From contig CAITGV010000002.1 in the NCBI GenBank assembly GCA_903892035.1, positions 65,714-129,713 of the forward strand: 64,000 nucleotides of DNA, read 5' to 3'. Within the stretch, counting starts at the first letter, position 1; every line of letters begins with the position of its first letter. A model generated the notes under the pieces. That model worked only from the letters and a program-made list of their open reading frames with translations. It did no database searches and had not been told where the DNA came from. Source of the stretch: an uncultured bacterium (GTDB lineage: Bacteria > Patescibacteriota > Minisyncoccia > Phycocordibacterales > UBA9973). Shown one piece after another: positions 13,426 through 57,750 of this stretch. The translations under genes were made by a program, and so were the position numbers.

Positions 13426-13459
13426 TCCCTCTCCTTTACAAGGAGAGGGCTAGGGAGAG
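13426..13459. repeat. GC-rich hairpin repeat family R4, copy a (ccctctcctt-tac-aaggagaggg + ctagggagagg)
   Basis: 10-bp perfect stem directly after priA stop; about 85% identical to the inverse copy inside tsaD at 38512..38544. Confidence 0.7.
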
Positions 13460-13508
13460 GTTCTCGCATTTGCGTTTCTAAAAAGAAAGTGGTATTATCT
13501 TTTTACAT

Positions 13509-13760
13509 ATGCCAAAAGTACACATTGAAGTAAAAAAGGGTCCAAATGAAAACAACGTCACATTGTTGCGTCGTTTTTCTCGCAAAGTGCAAGATACAAG
13601 AATGATTCCAAAGGTTAAAGGTGCTCGTTACAATGAACGCGCAAAATCAAAATTAACTACAAAGAAAGGTGCTCTAAAGCGTCTTGCTCGCTGGAAAGAT
13701 AACGAGAAATTACGAAAACTTGGAAAAGTAATCGAACGCAAGAAAGGCGGACGACGCTAA
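13509..13760 (+). CDS. rpsU: 30S ribosomal protein bS21
   Basis: MPKVHIEVKKGPNENNVTLLRRFSRKVQ...basic C-terminal tail; typical S21. Confidence 0.85.
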   Translation: MPKVHIEVKKGPNENNVTLLRRFSRKVQDTRMIPKVKGARYNERAKSKLTTKKGALKRLARWKDNEKLRKLGKVIERKKGGRR

Positions 13761-13782
13761 ATTAACATATGCAGAATAAGAG

Positions 13783-13833
13783 AAATCTTCGCGCTTTACC
13801 CTCTCTACGGGGGCTCCGACACGACTCTGATTT
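13783..13833. repeat. GC-rich repeat family R3, copy a (aaatcttcgcgctttaccctctctacgggggctccgacacgactc + t/a gattt)
   Basis: 45 nt identical to 54604..54648; short terminal inverted ends aaatc/gattt; intergenic between rpsU and ybeY. Confidence 0.8.
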
Positions 13834-13906
13834 ATCTCATTCTGCTCCTACTATCAGCATAATAAGAGAAACAAAAGGCGAGCTTCCTAGCTTGCCTTTT
13901 GCCTAT

Positions 13907-14224
13907 ATGAAGGACACAATATTGGGCAAAAAATACGAATTGTCAGTTGCTTTTATAGGTGAAAAAAAATCTCATGAAATAAATTTTAAACTTCGTGGAA
14001 AAGATAAACCGACAAATATTCTTTCATTTCCCCTATCAAAAAATTCTGGTGAAATTTTAATCAGTCTTTCGACTGCAAAAAAAGATGCAAAAAATTTCGA
14101 CAAAAAACCAGCAGATTTTCTCGGTTTTCTGTTTATCCACGGTTTACTGCATTTGAAAGGAATGCAACATGGTAGTACAATGGAGAAGGCAGAGAAAAAG
14201 TTTTGCAAAAAATTTGGTTTTTAA
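13907..14224 (+). CDS. ybeY: rRNA maturation endoribonuclease YbeY
   Basis: TNILSFP and HGLLHLKGMQH zinc-binding H3 motif. ORF track starts at 13769, but those 46 codons are the R3 repeat and poorly protein-like; Met at 13907 (MKDTILGKKYEL) preferred. Confidence 0.8.
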   Translation: MKDTILGKKYELSVAFIGEKKSHEINFKLRGKDKPTNILSFPLSKNSGEILISLSTAKKDAKNFDKKPADFLGFLFIHGLLHLKGMQHGSTMEKAEKKFCKKFGF

Positions 14225-30913: not shown

Positions 30914-31080
30914 ATAAAAAAATTCCTTCGGAGAGGAATTTTTGCGCATGCTAATGCAATACGTTTCCTGCTCGGGACTTACATCATATTAGTAATCGGA
31001 CTTTTCCATTTTATTGGAATCACCGTAGCGGCACTGTGCAGGATTCACACCTGCTTCCCTAATATGAATATTATTTTTTT
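30914..31080 (-). promoter_or_regulatory. cobalamin (B12) riboswitch-like leader with intrinsic terminator expression platform
   Basis: Minus-strand RNA contains AGGGAAGCAGGUGUGAAUCCUGCACAGUGCCGCUACGGUGA, matching the cobalamin aptamer core GGGAA..GGUG..AAUCC..GC.G.CCCGC.AC.GU. Followed by hairpin AAUUCCU-cuccga-AGGAAUU plus U7 at 30914..30943. Confidence 0.7.
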
Positions 31081-31092
31081 AAATGCTTCAAC

Positions 31093-37557: not shown

Positions 37558-38853
37558 ATGAGAATATTATCTATTGAAACAAGTTGCGACGAGACATCTA
37601 TCGCAATTGTCGACGCAAAAGGTGGAATTAAAAATCCAGTATTTAAGGTGCTCGCGCACGAGACTGCTTCACAGATAGAACTTCATACACAATACGGAGG
37701 AGTTTTTCCAATGATGGCTAAGCGCGAGCATAGTAAAAATATTGTTCCGCTTTTTATTAAAGCATTGAAGAAAGCAAAAATGTTGTCGTATTCTTCCTCT
37801 CCTTTGGGGAGGTTAGGAGGGGTTCTTGAAAAAGCCCTCGTCCGTGAACCCGAAATGCTTGAAATATTTTTGCGTGAAATTCCTAAAATTAAAATTCCAA
37901 AAATTGATTTAATTGCCGTAACTGCCGGTCCAGGACTTGAGCCTGCACTTTGGGTTGGAATTAATTTTGCTCAAGCACTTGGCAAAGTTTGGAAAATACC
38001 AGTGAGACCAATAAATCACATGGAAGGACACGTCATGTCGGTTTTGATACAAAAACCGACAAAAATGTCTAAATCAGAATTTCTAATTTCTAAAAAAAAT
38101 ACTCAAAAGGTGGATGTGAAATTTCCTGCGATATCACTGCTTGTTTCTGGAGGACACACAGAAATTGTTTTAGTAAAAAATTGGATGGAATACAAAATGC
38201 TCGGTGCTACTCGCGACGACGCTGCAGGAGAAGCTTTTGATAAAGTGGCACGAATGCTTGACCTTCCCTATCCTGGAGGGCCTGAGATTTCGAGGTTAGC
38301 ACAAATCTACAGAAAAATGCTTGACTCGACCACACATAAAATCGTGCTCGATTTTTGCTCTGCTCAAGCCGTCGCTTTGCGCAAGGGTCTCCCTAAGCAT
38401 TTTTCTTCCGATATTCATTTCCCTCGACCGATGATCAATAGTAAAGATTTTGATTTTTCATTTTCAGGACTTAAAACTGCGGTTTTATATTACATACGAG
38501 ACAAATACAACCCCACCCTAGCCCTCTCCTTATCAAGGGAGGGAAAAATGCAAATAGCAAAAGAATTTGAAGATGCAGTTGTAGAAGTACTTGTTACAAA
38601 AACTTTACGTGCAGTTGAAAAATATGAAGCCAAAAGTTTAATTGTTGGTGGTGGAGTTTCCGCAAACAATGAACTACAAAATCAGTTAAAAAAACAAATA
38701 AAAAATAAAAAACTTTCCACAAAACTTTATTTGCCAATAAAAAACCTTTCCACCGACAATGCCCTTATGATAGCCCTCGCTGGATATTTTCGCTCAGTTC
38801 AAGGAAAAAAATATACTAAAAAAATCAAAGCCTCTGGAAACCTTGGTTTATAA
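37558..38853 (+). CDS. tsaD: tRNA N6-adenosine threonylcarbamoyltransferase TsaD (Kae1/Gcp family) with GC-rich insertions
   Basis: MRILSIETSCDETSIAIV, HMEGH, SGGHTE, GGGVSAN motifs; 431 aa versus about 340 typical, with three insert segments. Confidence 0.85.
   Translation: MRILSIETSCDETSIAIVDAKGGIKNPVFKVLAHETASQIELHTQYGGVFPMMAKREHSKNIVPLFIKALKKAKMLSYSSSPLGRLGGVLEKALVREPEMLEIFLREIPKIKIPKIDLIAVTAGPGLEPALWVGINFAQALGKVWKIPVRPINHMEGHVMSVLIQKPTKMSKSEFLISKKNTQKVDVKFPAISLLVSGGHTEIVLVKNWMEYKMLGATRDDAAGEAFDKVARMLDLPYPGGPEISRLAQIYRKMLDSTTHKIVLDFCSAQAVALRKGLPKHFSSDIHFPRPMINSKDFDFSFSGLKTAVLYYIRDKYNPTLALSLSREGKMQIAKEFEDAVVEVLVTKTLRAVEKYEAKSLIVGGGVSANNELQNQLKKQIKNKKLSTKLYLPIKNLSTDNALMIALAGYFRSVQGKKYTKKIKASGNLGL
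38512..38544. repeat. repeat family R4, copy b (inverse orientation), in-frame inside tsaD
   Basis: Reverse complement ccctcccttgataaggagagggctagggtgggg matches 13426..13459; encodes NPTLALSLSREGK, an insertion relative to other TsaD sequences. Confidence 0.7.
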
Positions 38854-47075: not shown

Positions 47076-47111
47076 TATAGCAAAAAATGCCTTAAATTAA
47101 AAGCTAACTTT

Positions 47112-47132
47112 TTTGGGAGCTTAGCTCCCAAA
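47112..47132. repeat. REP-like palindrome family P2 (tttgggagc-tta-gctcccaaa), copy a
   Basis: Perfect 9-bp arms, 3 bp after the RAYT copy 2 stop. Confidence 0.8.
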
Positions 47133-47134
47133 TG

Positions 47135-47791
47135 TTAGTCGATGCACACTGATTTAAAATCACTTAAATCTTCCTTTCTTTTTCGAATTAAGGGTAATGT
47201 GTCTTTGGAATATTTAATAAAATCAGAAGAACTTTTAAATTGATCTAGAATAATATCTTTCTTACATATTCCATTTTTTTGCTCACCACTATATTCTGCA
47301 AAACTAGAAAATGGCAACTCCCTCATCCACAACTTGTTCATTCCTTCATGAACCATATTGTTCAAATTCACATAAACACCGAGATACAGTAAATACTCGT
47401 TTGAAGAAATATGCTTGGCTTTGTATGTTCCTTGAAAAAGCGAACCGGAACGGTCATTTTTTTCATTGAAATAATTCGTATACCCGGTAGAAATCCTGTG
47501 CATAAATTTCTGTACACCATTTTCAACCAAAGGCTCAAGAATAAAATGAAAATGATTTTGATTTAGACAGTACGCAATAATATTCACCAACTTTTTGGGA
47601 GCTAAGCTCCCAAATTTGTCATCTTCTCTTGATTTTTCATAAATACTTCCAATTATATCTACTGTATTAAACATCTCCATGCTATTAAGAAATCGTTGAA
47701 GGTCTTCCTTGTCTTCAAAAATATTTCTTTTATCAACACCACGATTATATATATGATAAAACTCACCTTCTTCAAATACTGTGTATCTCAT
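47135..47791 (-). CDS. IS200-like Y1 transposase / RAYT-like, copy 2 (contains an in-frame P2 palindrome)
   Basis: YHIYNRGVDKR, NHFHFIL (HUH), GSLFQGTYKAK motifs; about 45% identical to copy 1. P2 copy at 47594..47614 lies in-frame (encodes KFGSLAPK). Confidence 0.75.
   Translation of the reverse strand: MRYTVFEEGEFYHIYNRGVDKRNIFEDKEDLQRFLNSMEMFNTVDIIGSIYEKSREDDKFGSLAPKKLVNIIAYCLNQNHFHFILEPLVENGVQKFMHRISTGYTNYFNEKNDRSGSLFQGTYKAKHISSNEYLLYLGVYVNLNNMVHEGMNKLWMRELPFSSFAEYSGEQKNGICKKDIILDQFKSSSDFIKYSKDTLPLIRKRKEDLSDFKSVCID
47594..47614. repeat. P2 palindrome copy b (inverse orientation, spacer taa) inside RAYT copy 2 coding sequence
   Basis: tttgggagc-taa-gctcccaaa. Confidence 0.8.
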
Positions 47792-47806
47792 AACAATATT
47801 GTACCA

Positions 47807-47827
47807 TTTGGGAGCTTAGCTCCCAAA
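47807..47827. repeat. P2 palindrome copy c
   Basis: 16 bp upstream of the RAYT copy 2 start, directly after the LysE stop. Confidence 0.8.
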
Positions 47828-47828
47828 T

Positions 47829-48449
47829 TTATTTGAGAAAATAAATTATCTCTGTATATAGTATTTTTAAGGCGAGCAAAAATACTAAAATAGCTAGGGC
47901 CACAAATACTTTTCTAATAACTCTTTCATTCAGCAAAAATTTCCTTAGTGCATTAAAACCAAAAAAGATAATAGTTATCACCACAACCATTGAAATTTCA
48001 AATATTGCTACAAATAGATACTCCCCGTAATGAATACTGCTACCCATACTAAACGCAATAGGAAGACATACGGAAGTCCAATACAACCATAGTGGGCCAT
48101 TAAAAATCATTAACAGAAAAATATGTTTTATGCCAACTTTCTTTTGTTCTTTCGTATAATCAATTTTTCTAATTTTATAAAGCTGTAGTGCAATATACGC
48201 AAGCATCACCACACCAACAAAAGCAAAAATATGAAAAACAACATGCGGAATTTTTAACCAAGAAGAAGTCGCGACAAGTAAAAGGCCGATAAAAAACTCT
48301 GTCAGCCCTGCCACAATAATGTACATTCCCCCATTCACAAGACCCTTTTTAGGTGATCTTAATATTTCAGATAGAGCAATCAAAAGTATCGGACCAGGAG
48401 TAAGCCCACCTATAAATCCTAAAATTATTGTTGTAATGATATCTTTCAT
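47829..48449 (-). CDS. LysE/RhtB-family amino-acid exporter
   Basis: N-terminal GFIGGLTPGPILL motif characteristic of the LysE family; 6 TM. Confidence 0.7.
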   Translation of the reverse strand: MKDIITTIILGFIGGLTPGPILLIALSEILRSPKKGLVNGGMYIIVAGLTEFFIGLLLVATSSWLKIPHVVFHIFAFVGVVMLAYIALQLYKIRKIDYTKEQKKVGIKHIFLLMIFNGPLWLYWTSVCLPIAFSMGSSIHYGEYLFVAIFEISMVVVITIIFFGFNALRKFLLNERVIRKVFVALAILVFLLALKILYTEIIYFLK

Positions 48450-48456
48450 ATTCCTT

Positions 48457-48477
48457 TTGGGAGCTTAGCTCCCAAAT
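48457..48477. repeat. P2 palindrome copy d
   Basis: 8 bp upstream of the LysE start, abutting the ABC transporter stop. Confidence 0.8.
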
Positions 48478-54122: not shown

Positions 54123-56588
54123 TTAAAATACGATATTAACCAAACGCCCCTTTACGTAAATAACCTTTTTAATTTCTTTACCTTCTATCCAGTTCACCAC
54201 GGCATGATCTTTCATTGCCATTGCTTTTACTTCTTCTTCATTCATTTCATTTGAAATTTTTATTTCTGCTCGTACTTTTCCATTTACAGATACAGCAATA
54301 GTAATTTCATTGTCGATAACTTTTTTAGGGTCAAATTTAGGCCAAAGAGAAAGGTGTATTGATTTTTTTTCGCCCAATTCACTCCAAAGTTGTTCTGTGA
54401 TATGTGGCGCAAAAGGTGCGAGAATTTGCAGAAACATTTTAAAATCCTTCTCGTCTACAGATTCAGCTTTTTCCATTTCATTTAAACAAATCATCATAGC
54501 TGAAACTGCAGTATTAAAACTCGTCGTCTCAATATCTTCTGTAACTTTTTTTATAGTTTTGTGCAGTGTAGCTTGCAGCGTTAGGTATGCTGAAGAATAA
54601 ATAAAATCTTCGCGCTTTACCCTCTCTACGGGGGCTCCGACACGACTCAGATTTTTTTTATTCTTCAGCATATTCTGCGCAACGATTTTATTATAAATTT
54701 TCCAAACGCGCTCTAGAAATCTTCTAGGGCCCACCATCGAATCTGTACTCCACGATACATGCTGATCAAATGGACCCATAAACATTTCATATACTCGCAA
54801 AGTATCTGCCCCAAAAGTTTTCACAATTGCATCAGGATTTATAACATTGCCTTTTGATTTTGACATTTTCTCTCCACCGTCAGCCAAAATTAAACCGTGA
54901 GATGTTCTTTTTTGATATGGCTCTTTTGTTGGAACCAATTTTAAATCATAAAGAAATTTATGCCAGAATCTTGAATACAATAAGTGAAGAGTTGTGTGCT
55001 CCATACCACCATTGTACCAATCGACGGGTGTAAAATATTTTAAATTCTTTTTCGAAGCAAATTCTTTTTTATTTTTTGGATCTGTATATCGTAAATAATA
55101 CCAAGAGCTTCCTGCCCAGTTTGGCATTGTGTCGGTTTCTCTTTTTGCTTTACCTTTACATTTTGGACATTTTACATTTACCCATTTTGTAATTTCAGCC
55201 AAAGGACTTTCACCATTATCAGTCGGCTCATATTTTTTTACTTTTGGAAGTACTACTGGTAAATCTTTTTCAGGCACAGGTACTACTCCACATTTTTCAC
55301 AATGAATCATTGGTATCGGTTCACCCCAATATCTTTGTCTTGAAAAAACCCAATCACGAAGTTTGTATTTTGTAACAATTCTTCCACCGACAAAATCTGT
55401 AATTTCCTTTCGGGCATATTCACTAGTCATTCCATCAAATTTTCCAGAATTTGTCAGTATTCCATCTCCAGTAAAACATTCGGATTCAATTCCTTGTGGG
55501 TTATTTAAAACCTGCTTCATTGGCAAATTGTATTTTTTTGCAAAAGCAAAATCCCGCTCATCATGCATATCTGCAAATATTGCTCCTGTGCCATATTGCG
55601 CAAGCACAAAATCTGCAATATAAATTGGAATCTCTTCACCATTTACTGGATTTATAGCTTTTACTCCTTTTAACTCAACACCGGTCTTATCCTTATCCTC
55701 AGAAGTACGTTCTATATCTGTTTTCTTTTTTGTATCATTAATATATTTTTCAATTTCACTTAAATTTAAAATTTGTGATTTAATTTTCAAAATCATCGGA
55801 TGTTCTGGGGCCAAAGTTAACGCAAAAGCACCAAATAAAGTATCGGCTCTTGTTGTGAAAGTGGTAATTTTTTCATCACTATTTTTAATTTTAAAATCAA
55901 TTTCACTTCCCTCGCTTTTTCCTATCCAATTCCTTTGTTGAATTTTAATTTTTTCCAAATAGTCCACAGTGTCGAGATCTTTATCGAGCCTGTCTGCATA
56001 TTTTGTTATTGCAAGCATCCACTGCTCTTTGTCGCGCTTTTCTACAGGTGTGCCACATCTTTCACAACAACCAGCAATTACCTCTTCGTTTGCAAGGCCA
56101 ATTTTGTCTTTCGGACACCAGTTGATAGCAATGCGAGCTTTATATGCCAAACCTTTTTTATAGAATTGCAAAAATATCCATTGCGTCCATTTATAGTACG
56201 CTGGATCTGTGGTATTTATTTCTCTATCCCAATCAAAACCAAAACCAAGTTCTTTTAATTGTCGGCGAAAAGTGTCAGTATTTTTCTTTGTAATTGCTTC
56301 GGGTTGTTTACCTGTTTTAATTGCATAATTTTCTGTAGGCAAACCAAAAGCATCCCAACCAATTGGATAAAGAGTATTGTAACCCTGCATGCGTCGTTTG
56401 CGAGTGATGATATCCATCGCAGTATTGCTTCTGATGTGGCCCACGTGCAAACCATCTCCAGATGGATATGGAAATTCAATGAGGCCAAAAAACTTTTTAC
56501 CTTTTGTATTTTTTACAGAATAAATTTTTTTCTTATCCCATTCCTTCTGCCACTTTTTTTCAATTTTTTTATGATCGTAAATTTTCAT
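54123..56588 (-). CDS. leuS: leucyl-tRNA synthetase
   Basis: HVGHIRSNTAMDI HIGH region, KMSKSKGN, LeuRS CP1 and anticodon-binding domains. Confidence 0.95.
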   Translation of the reverse strand: MKIYDHKKIEKKWQKEWDKKKIYSVKNTKGKKFFGLIEFPYPSGDGLHVGHIRSNTAMDIITRKRRMQGYNTLYPIGWDAFGLPTENYAIKTGKQPEAITKKNTDTFRRQLKELGFGFDWDREINTTDPAYYKWTQWIFLQFYKKGLAYKARIAINWCPKDKIGLANEEVIAGCCERCGTPVEKRDKEQWMLAITKYADRLDKDLDTVDYLEKIKIQQRNWIGKSEGSEIDFKIKNSDEKITTFTTRADTLFGAFALTLAPEHPMILKIKSQILNLSEIEKYINDTKKKTDIERTSEDKDKTGVELKGVKAINPVNGEEIPIYIADFVLAQYGTGAIFADMHDERDFAFAKKYNLPMKQVLNNPQGIESECFTGDGILTNSGKFDGMTSEYARKEITDFVGGRIVTKYKLRDWVFSRQRYWGEPIPMIHCEKCGVVPVPEKDLPVVLPKVKKYEPTDNGESPLAEITKWVNVKCPKCKGKAKRETDTMPNWAGSSWYYLRYTDPKNKKEFASKKNLKYFTPVDWYNGGMEHTTLHLLYSRFWHKFLYDLKLVPTKEPYQKRTSHGLILADGGEKMSKSKGNVINPDAIVKTFGADTLRVYEMFMGPFDQHVSWSTDSMVGPRRFLERVWKIYNKIVAQNMLKNKKNLSRVGAPVERVKREDFIYSSAYLTLQATLHKTIKKVTEDIETTSFNTAVSAMMICLNEMEKAESVDEKDFKMFLQILAPFAPHITEQLWSELGEKKSIHLSLWPKFDPKKVIDNEITIAVSVNGKVRAEIKISNEMNEEEVKAMAMKDHAVVNWIEGKEIKKVIYVKGRLVNIVF
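54604..54654. repeat. repeat family R3, copy b, in-frame inside leuS
   Basis: 45 nt identical to 13783..13827; translated on the minus strand as NLSRVGAPVERVKREDF in a variable linker. Confidence 0.8.
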
Positions 56589-57172: not shown

Positions 57173-57750
57173 ACTACAATAATAGCAAATATATGCTATT
57201 ATTTAAAGACTTATATTTTAATACAATGTCCCCTAAAAAACGTACAGAAAAAATAGAGAAATTTTCAAGCAGAGCCACAAAATGGATCGGGTCTTCAAAC
57301 TCGCTTATTTTCCATACAATATTTTTTGCAATAATGGCAGTACTCTCAATAGTTGGCGTAGATATGGATAAAGTTCTCCTAGTATTGACAACAATTGTAT
57401 CCTTGGAGGCAATTTATCTTTCAATTTTTATCCAAATGACAGTAAATAAAAATACTGCCGATATCGAAGACATCGCGGAAGATGTGGAAGAAATTGCAGA
57501 AGATGTCGAAGACATTGCGGAAGATGTGGAAGGTATTGAAAAAGACGTTGATGAAATTCAGCAAGACGTGGACGAGATTCAAAAAGATGTGGACGAAATT
57601 CAAGAAGACGTCGAAGACATAGAGGAAGTGCACGACCAAAAATCTCCTAAAGGTGAAAAAAATAACCACCCAGAAATACTAGAAAAAATTCAACATGTTC
57701 TCGAAGCGCTTGCAAAAGACGTCGAAGCTCTAAAAAACAAAGAGAAATAA
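57160..57750 (+). CDS. DUF1003-family membrane protein with acidic coiled-coil repeat tail
   Basis: KWIGSSNSLIFHTIFFAIM matches DUF1003; true start possibly Met at 57226 (MSPKKRT). Confidence 0.6.
   Translation: MDYSYYNNSKYMLLFKDLYFNTMSPKKRTEKIEKFSSRATKWIGSSNSLIFHTIFFAIMAVLSIVGVDMDKVLLVLTTIVSLEAIYLSIFIQMTVNKNTADIEDIAEDVEEIAEDVEDIAEDVEGIEKDVDEIQQDVDEIQKDVDEIQEDVEDIEEVHDQKSPKGEKNNHPEILEKIQHVLEALAKDVEALKNKEK
57462..57629. repeat. seven tandem 24-nt (8-codon) in-frame repeats encoding (D/E)V(E/D)(E/D)I(A/Q)(E/K)
   Basis: gaagatgtggaagaaattgcagaa-like units repeated back to back. Confidence 0.75.

Follow-up and report, generated by a model that had tools for sequence, protein, structure and literature searches.

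In-frame, strand-polarized hairpin repeats in housekeeping genes of Patescibacteria

Palindromic repeats that settle within protein-coding genes are best described from Rickettsia. The Rickettsia palindromic elements (RPEs) measure ~150 bp, are inserted in frame in unrelated housekeeping open reading frames (ORFs) at positions compatible with the protein fold, and fall into several families, each encoding one conserved peptide in a single frame; the mechanism of their mobility is unknown (PMC10969869). Here we describe an independent and richer system in Patescibacteria. It came to light in a 64-kb stretch of contig CAITGV010000002.1 from an uncultured patescibacterium (assembly GCA_903892035.1; hereafter the window, meaning the whole stretch analysed), where a GC-rich hairpin repeat occurs within the leucyl-tRNA synthetase gene leuS and at the start of ybeY. 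With a probability of about 0.72, we read these repeats as a selfish, non-autonomous family of translated palindromic elements that most likely spread via a single-stranded hairpin intermediate of fixed polarity.

Other dispersed palindromes provide further points of reference. [quoted passage not shown] Repetitive extragenic palindromes (REPs), of the REP/REPIN-RAYT systems, are short and GC-rich with a GTAG tetranucleotide at the 5' foot, and derivatives of IS200/IS605 carry two different subterminal hairpins; both groups involve single-strand hairpins of one polarity, without classical terminal inverted repeats or target-site duplication. Fungal mitochondria harbor GC clusters, byp and double-hairpin elements, all of them mobile GC-rich palindromes that invade AT-rich genomes, protein genes included, sometimes in frame. 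Integron attC sites conserve their structure rather than their sequence, covary extensively, and are active as a hairpin that only one of the two strands forms.

Two hairpins and their host genes

The 45-nt sequence AAATCTTCGCGCTTTACCCTCTCTACGGGGGCTCCGACACGACTC occurs exactly twice on the + strand of the window, at 13783-13827 and 54604-54648, as a first-pass annotation of this DNA had reported, and none of 100 dinucleotide shuffles reproduced the match. Its GC content of 0.58, against 0.347 window-wide, likewise agrees with the GC-rich repeat on an AT-rich background described there. The identity is therefore real, but the 45-51 nt then assigned to the repeat fall short of its true extent: the copies are similar over 74 nt at 89% identity (13770-13843 versus 54591-54664), and the unit is a whole hairpin. 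The termini aaatc/gattt noted earlier are indeed inverted, but are merely the innermost portion of arms of 17-24 bp.

Copy 1 forms a 75-nt hairpin at 13771-13845, with 17-bp arms (15/17 paired), and copy 2 an 87-nt hairpin at 54586-54672, with 24-bp arms (23/24 paired) around a 39-nt centre; they score 90.1 and 91.3 bits, respectively, against the covariance model. Both are assigned to the - strand according to their inferred folding polarity, the reference being the strand that bears a GUAGA loop. This is the sense strand of the leuS mRNA for copy 2, and is antisense to ybeY for copy 1. The conserved core of copy 2 (54613-54644, spelled CGCTTTACCCTCTCTACGGGGGCTCCGACACG on the + strand) has the same sequence in copy 1 (13792-13823). 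Differences between the copies affect 8 of 29 positions outside the 45-mer and none of the 45 within it (Fisher p = 2.8e-4); all 8 lie in the arms and include a compensatory C-G to A-T change, and each arm of copy 2 is longer by one triplet, giving an extra TGA/TCA pair. Folding z-scores of the window hairpins range from -3.2 to -8.7, with copy 2 at -8.0 and -8.7. An inverted-repeat scan, a GC-island scan and the covariance model at E up to 10 revealed no additional or decayed copies in the window.

The host of copy 2, leuS (54123-56588, - strand), was identified by homology and encodes 821 aa. It reads the 45-mer in frame as NLSRVGAPVERVKREDF, residues 646-662 (N646-F662), and the whole hairpin encodes roughly residues 640-668 of leucyl-tRNA synthetase (LeuRS). 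The first-pass annotation was right to place this in-frame translation on the opposite strand, within a variable LeuRS linker, and erred by one base in the span of the codons, which run from 54653 down to 54603 instead of 54604-54654. From RFLxRVW to FNTAISSMM the linker is 77 aa long, compared with 48 aa in the shortest of 120 close homologues, so the insertion comprises 27-29 aa (~87 nt) and corresponds to the entire hairpin, not to 17 aa alone. The site is empty in about 40% of orthologues; one of these (P0005) has an AT-rich linker that forms no hairpin and has a minimum free energy of -6.5 kcal/mol. Alignment of the orthologues thus identifies the peptide as an insertion, and a pattern in which orthologues keep the peptide while the nucleotide repeat is found nowhere else is not what we observe. 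In an AlphaFold2 model built with 41 orthologues (mean predicted local distance difference test score, pLDDT, 71), residues 647-664 are coil with pLDDT < 50, flanked by helices 615-647 and 666-687. The insert is accordingly modelled as the disordered tip of a helical hairpin, at the point where the anticodon-binding domain begins.

LeuRS length also varies elsewhere in Paceibacteria. Many of these proteins (P0002, P0004, P0007, P0009, P0040, P0074 and others) reach 940-1175 aa and contain an inserted NUDIX domain (PF00293), sometimes with an additional Ham1/ITPase domain (PF01725), and a few bear an alpha/beta-hydrolase domain (PF00561) in place of NUDIX. None of these domains is present in the 821-aa protein of the window.

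Copy 1 had been placed in an intergenic spacer between rpsU and ybeY, which is probably wrong. The ybeY ORF (13769-14224, + strand, 151 aa) opens with an ATG at 13769 that is followed directly by the element, the G of the ATG being the first paired base of the left arm, and the copy is read in frame on the + strand as QNKRNLRALPSLRGLRHDSDLSHS. The N-terminal segment shared by YbeY orthologues, '..ISIxxxTKGKLPSLPF..', is located downstream of the element but before Met47 in the window protein, and the ATG at 13769 is the sole in-frame start codon upstream of that segment. Ahead of the GKDKPTN motif there are 76 residues, versus a mode of 52 among 115 orthologues, an excess of ~24 codons that equals the N-terminal extension made up by the element (about 24 codons). 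The most likely reading of these sequence comparisons is that copy 1 was inserted in frame, as 24 codons, just behind the ybeY start codon. The 151-aa form of ybeY is also the one predicted by gene callers for the parent contig (ENA ERZ27313596 k141_432308, 157.8 kb). The upstream gene (13509-13760, + strand) encodes an 83-aa basic protein whose rpsU label holds only as a weak S21 likeness (Pfam E = 0.29, below threshold). Every contig that encodes this identical S21-like protein and LeuRS carries both copies, and hence no filled/empty polymorphism was seen within the strain.

The position of the ybeY start codon, within the element arm and 8 nt past the stop codon of the upstream ORF, has a possible consequence for expression. 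The hairpin would sequester the start codon, and translation of ybeY may therefore depend on coupling to the upstream ORF.

Structure, reading frames and strand polarity of the family

The repeat is not confined to this strain. A set comprising one genome per species, scanned for the central 20-mer, returned 48 loci, of which 44 lie in Patescibacteria assemblies (Paceibacteria, Nomura-, Giovannoni- and Taylorbacteria, and some labelled 'Saccharibacteria'), with up to about 6 element copies per assembly. A 28-nt degenerate core pattern recovered 64 further loci from metagenomes. Taken together, these scans yielded about 100 further occurrences of the core, all in Patescibacteria, from the 64 metagenome loci and roughly twenty genome assemblies; a scan of viral contigs gave no match. 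Several of the hits originate from groundwater wells at Hainich. The literature searched contained no relevant account of palindromic elements, of MITEs or of repeats like the RPEs from Patescibacteria, Parcubacteria or the Candidate Phyla Radiation (CPR). Rfam 15 yielded no match to the element at gathering score in a scan of the whole window, and its E-value mode applied to both copies gave sub-threshold matches to generic miRNA hairpins. The window copies thus belong to a family of small, non-coding dispersed repeats that form hairpins, are specific to Patescibacteria of the Paceibacteria type and had not been described before in the literature searched. Chance similarity, assembly artefact or contamination is a negligible prospect: all that speaks for it is that the data are assembled metagenomes, whereas the shuffles gave no match and the copies stem from studies and assemblers independent of one another, and are embedded in frame in genes, and between arms, that differ from copy to copy.

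The four remaining loci of the 20-mer scan (L011, L023, L040 and L044, from Treponema bryantii, a Treponema sp. and a Fibrobacterota assembly) were rejected as members. They share a conserved 36-nt motif, CCCTCTCTACGGGGGCTCCGCCCCCGTAACGCCCCC, that includes the 20-mer and forms a different, short and perfect GC hairpin, ACGGGGGC-TCC-GCCCCCGT, without AT-rich arms; we regard it as an unrelated repeat or else as coincidental.

Every family member folds as a long hairpin, typically of 75-130 nt with a median near 94 nt. Long AT-rich arms, free in sequence and constrained to pair, lead through a short covarying inner helix to a GC-rich core of ~32 nt. This core is nearly invariant; it is made up of the covarying inner pairs and an asymmetric internal loop, followed by an invariant apical helix of 5 bp that is closed by a loop of 5 nt. 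When 47 copies are aligned without gaps, the arms have a mean identity of 0.42, and yet double compensatory changes are seen at 19 of the 24 predicted pairs (with GC16/AU12/UA11/CG4 at one of them), and the two inner pairs that adjoin the core covary as well. Compensatory change in a DNA palindrome can also arise by template switching without selection. Core positions left free by the searches are conserved too, namely C32, T33, T34, A36 and A57, with C58 and C60 present in >90% of copies. By its looks the internal loop may be of the UAA/GAN type, and the terminal loop may be a GNRNA-like pentaloop. K-turn and sarcin-ricin readings of the internal loop were discarded, as their consensus was not matched on inspection by eye.

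No target-site duplication is apparent at the element boundaries. Direct-repeat lengths are close to those of a shuffled-partner control, with boundaries uncertain by a few nt, and no target motif is detectable at the insertion sites. A TTC triplet recurs on both sides of the main arm; this does not look like a duplication but seems to belong to the element, forming a 3x3 internal loop beyond which another outer helix follows.

Long uninterrupted ORFs contain 31 of 47 copies in the genome set, with two more in ORFs at contig edges; copy 1 of the window probably adds another coding case, and 26 of the 46 classifiable metagenome copies are coding, so that about 60% of copies are intragenic overall. 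All 57 coding copies keep the frame without a stop codon, and no frame-breaking copy was found in these data. Hosts confirmed by Pfam are RNase HII, M1 aminopeptidase, UvrC, FAD-linked oxidase, DnaG, TsaD, PfkB kinase and TruB, in which the inserts are positioned between domains or interrupt a domain match; IleRS, LigA (at two sites), MnmA, Tgt, Dus and UvrA were assigned by motif. Non-coding copies fill short intergenic spacers, for instance between ScpA and ScpB or between RNase H and ComEC. Four genome-set copies between same-strand ORFs were considered as possible split genes and dismissed, the neighbours being complete and unrelated genes.

Six reading frames of one and the same core are in use: ALPSLRGLR, L(Y/N)PLYGGSD, R(F/L)TLSTGAP, VGAPVERVK, RSPRREG and SEPPQRGLS. 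In the standard core five of these are open and the SEPPQRGLS frame is shut by a TAG; this frame is used only by copies with the loop variant TCTGC/GCAGA, in which TAG becomes CAG. Sense and antisense copies occur at about 39:21, which fits the 3:2 expectation from the open frames. A shared peptide cannot account for a repeat read in six frames, and the argument of the first-pass annotation, that conservation at the nucleotide level over strands and frames favors a mobile or RNA element, is strengthened accordingly. Judging from their frames, the coding copies are translated in all likelihood, and selection would filter insertions for a length that is a multiple of three and for freedom from stop codons.

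The same observations bear on whether the hairpins could be mini-introns or segments bypassed by a 'hopping' ribosome, and thus never translated. GC-rich hairpins within AT-rich coding sequence do recall mitochondrial bypass elements. A segment that is removed, however, has no need to preserve frame or avoid stops, whereas all coding copies do both and the sixth frame is occupied only with the TAG-removing variant; furthermore, no ribozyme or intron family was matched. Removal at the RNA level is therefore very improbable. For like reasons a self-splicing intron, an intein or a bypass element was rejected as the class of the element, 25-35 aa being also too short for an intein.

The arms are not symmetrical with respect to strand. 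On the written strand A.C mismatches outnumber G.T by 49 to 3 (p = 1e-11) and pyrimidine-pyrimidine mismatches outnumber purine-purine by 139 to 12; the complementary strand, which carries the GUAGA loop, has in their place G.U wobbles as well as G.A or A.A pairs. An excess of A.C is seen alike in sense (22:1), antisense (10:1) and intergenic copies (17:1). Under RNA parameters the GUAGA-loop strand gives the more stable fold for 87 of 96 copies (-44.3 versus -37.4 kcal/mol), and under DNA parameters for 80 of 96. Strand polarity is therefore intrinsic to the element and independent of the direction of host transcription, and this suggests a single-stranded intermediate, whether single-stranded DNA (ssDNA) or an RNA of its own. 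Orientation relative to the replication strand, as judged from local GC skew (32:17), is uninformative because it is confounded with gene strand.

Dispersal, turnover and the case for mobility

Arms of copies that reside in different genes of different genomes can be 84-91% identical, and subfamilies are recognizable by the inner helix. The copy in an RNase HII gene (L002) matches that in an M1 peptidase gene (L003:959), to which both window copies are also closest. Such identity at different sites implies a master consensus, that is, a dispersing repeat with master copies. Orthologous sites are occupied repeatedly and not stably: the element may be absent, decayed, truncated or replaced. Four close LeuRS genes, with flanks roughly 92-97% identical by eye, carry the element in opposite orientations, the right arm of one, reverse-complemented, matching the left arm of another, and the loop variant GGAGA/TCTCC is found in both orientations. 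This plausibly reflects flipping in place by recombination or template switching between the arms, and points to a turnover of elements faster than the divergence of their host genes. The distribution as a whole argues for mobility.

A different account would have these copies as immobile relics, ancient vertically inherited insertions whose cores are homogenized by gene conversion via the semi-conserved inner arms, with no present transposition. The same sites are occupied across many lineages (leuS, ligA, mnmA, the RNase HII gene and uvrC), no target-site duplication or transposase is found, and both copies are present in all contigs of this strain. The orientation flips at orthologous sites are also accommodated, since the arms are mutual reverse complements and gene conversion would flip orientation too. 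Conversely, the arm identity between genes and genomes, together with the subfamilies, is easier to explain by dispersal of the whole unit, and many orthologues have empty sites. Furthermore, core identity across lineages whose LeuRS are ~70% identical would need transfer or strong selection, beyond conversion within a genome. We consider the relic account improbable.

Sister families at the same sites add to the picture of replacement. Besides the family described so far, here termed A, we recognize hairpin families B (L048:1515-1619, L016:3378-3480 and L122, the latter in the leuS linker of P0107), C (L002:1283-1357 and L120:2766-2872) and D (L009:6711-6797, L123 and L124). Family B keeps the base module of family A and has the apex swapped for CCYGG-UACU-CMGGG; it underlies the 'SGLTLPGVPGGTHT' peptide, as confirmed by the DNA of P0107, where its 24-bp arms are perfect. 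The centre of family C reads ..GGGUGGGCGCGCC..GGGAUAAG.., and the base of family D, present in P0011 and P0006, reads GGTCCTCGGATCTCC...GGCCAGACC. In other lineages the LeuRS linker site is taken by families B and D. Family A is found there in about 8 orthologues, in either orientation or frame, and some further orthologues contain decayed or truncated A-like remnants.

These data also speak to the idea that the core hairpin serves the host as a recognition site at the RNA or DNA level, be it for RNase III or other processing, for protein binding, as a terminator-like signal or as a replication or repair signal. Strong covariation and intrinsic polarity would suit such a role, as would the internal-loop module conserved in common with families B and C and the location of intergenic copies exactly between genes, where terminators would sit. 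Against this, copies at orthologous sites come and go in the manner described, orientation is random relative to transcription, the host genes are unrelated, no Rfam family is matched, and copies are sparse, at roughly one per 100-150 kb (a rough estimate from copies per assembly). Retention for host benefit thus appears improbable.

Several points weigh against a mobile, translated element. Mobility is deduced from distribution and not from direct demonstration, and translation from frame preservation. No strictly polymorphic filled/empty site was found between near-identical genomes. Neither an autonomous partner nor a transposase was identified, with no search aimed at a Y1 transposase, and no element-flanked ORF was seen in the 3-15-kb loci around copies, a survey that did not extend to whole genomes. 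The invariance of the core is in part a matter of ascertainment, because the searches demanded 20-28 exact bases; among LeuRS orthologues sampled via their proteins, and hence free of this bias, an intact family-A core is present in only ~8 of ~70 that bear an insert. The polarity counts overstate the number of independent events, because the TTC/TTC loop and a CTC bulge are inherited from a common ancestor, and the favored strand has a C.A mismatch in the apical helix where the other has a U.G wobble.

With these reservations, we can propose how a selfish, translated hairpin might persist. Copies would land, or survive only, in intergenic spacers and in permissive linkers or loops of housekeeping proteins; those within genes would be transcribed and translated as extra surface loops of 25-35 aa, and selection would purge out-of-frame or stop-bearing copies. 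Residents may then flip in place in the manner suggested above, decay, become truncated, or be replaced by sister families at the same hot spots. Spread would most likely proceed via a single-stranded hairpin (ssDNA or RNA) of one polarity, 5'-..CGUGUCGGAGCCCCCGUAGAGAGGGUAAAGCG..-3', with a putative trans-acting enzyme recognizing the core and insertion leaving no target-site duplication. We give about even odds to the specific proposition that such an enzyme recognizes the folded core on one strand. It is tempting to speculate further that the family may represent a new class of structure-guided mobile element. Its recognition unit would be a folded strand of fixed polarity, with the invariant internal loop and the GUAGA-capped helix, and a putative enzyme of Patescibacteria, whether reverse transcriptase, HUH nuclease or recombinase, would read this module and place the hairpin at new sites, by copying or pasting, without target duplication; a common stem would bear families A, B, C and D as interchangeable 'heads'. 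Alternatively, the RNA form itself could be active. In this extended form the proposal is unlikely, and we offer it as conjecture.

Set beside the described systems, the family most resembles RPEs in behaviour: hairpin-forming repeats dispersed in multiple copies through a reduced, AT-rich genome, several families, and frequent insertion in frame in unrelated ORFs without disruption, here in 57 cases. The proposal of the first-pass annotation, a miniature mobile or RNA element inserted in frame in leuS, gains support from the family, the LeuRS insertion and the six frames, and its comparison with Rickettsia stands as regards behaviour. Architecture differs. The hairpin centre is conserved and the ends are variable, both orientations and six frames are used where an RPE family has one peptide, the length is about 75-110 nt versus about 150 bp, and there is a clear single-strand polarity without target-site duplication. 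All hits are in another phylum, Patescibacteria, with no sign of a relationship in sequence, and the distinction from RPEs is drawn from their description, not from consensus sequences.

The family is likewise small, non-autonomous, built of inverted repeats, dispersed and partly intragenic in the way of MITEs. The resemblance ends at the outer arms, which are the most variable part (0.42) around a conserved centre, and at the direct repeats, which are close to control. With REP/REPIN-RAYT and IS200/IS605 it has in common the single-strand hairpin of one polarity, the absence of target-site duplication and of classical terminal inverted repeats and, for REPs, a GTAG tetranucleotide in the core. 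In the present element, however, GTAG lies in the apical loop instead of the 5' foot, the arms are AT-rich, about 60% of copies are intragenic, and the two different subterminal hairpins of IS200/IS605 derivatives have no counterpart. The fungal mitochondrial palindromes are organellar and unrelated in sequence, and byp is skipped by the ribosome, whereas the present element appears to be translated. The attC boxes are at the hairpin base, and attC sites flank cassettes beside an integrase and are not located inside ORFs.

In-frame palindromic repeats in essential genes have been a Rickettsia curiosity for 25 years, with their mechanism unknown. The tiny genomes of the CPR are assumed to be streamlined and yet host the element, and some of the length variation and 'insertions' of CPR housekeeping proteins would be due to selfish DNA and not to adaptation. 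This would affect how these lineages are annotated, aligned and treated in phylogenomics; indeed, gene callers put start codons within elements, as in ybeY. The invariant core, strand polarity and subfamilies provide a handle for finding the mobilizing enzyme through phylogenetic profiling. Moreover, the inserts amount to an experiment of nature that can show which linkers of proteins accept 25-35 random residues, whichever of the six frames is read.

Further repeats and features of the window

A second GC-rich hairpin repeat occurs at 13427-13462 and 38509-38545, with the form ..CCCTCTCCTT-NNNN-AAGGAGAGGG.. followed by CTAGGG(A/T)G(A/G)GG. One copy is inverted relative to the other, with 87% complementarity; one lies in the spacer between a PriA-like and the S21-like ORF, and the other is in frame (NPTLALSLSREGK) in a TsaD-like ORF (37558-38853). 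This suggests that several families of GC-rich hairpin inserts are present in the genome to which the window belongs.

Perfect terminator-like intergenic palindromes form two small families, at 47110-48477 and 1266-1998: TTTGGGAGCTTAGCTCCCAAA is present in 4 copies, and AAAACCCAGTGGCTAAGCCACTGGGTTTT in 2 close copies plus a 69% partial match. An AdoCbl (cobalamin) riboswitch is predicted at 30958-31084 on the - strand (53 bits, gathering score 50). Finally, a tandem repeat with a 21-nt period (GAAGATGTGGAAGAAATTGCA-like, at least 10 units) extends over 57437-57718 and probably encodes an acidic protein segment of EDVEEIA-type repeats.

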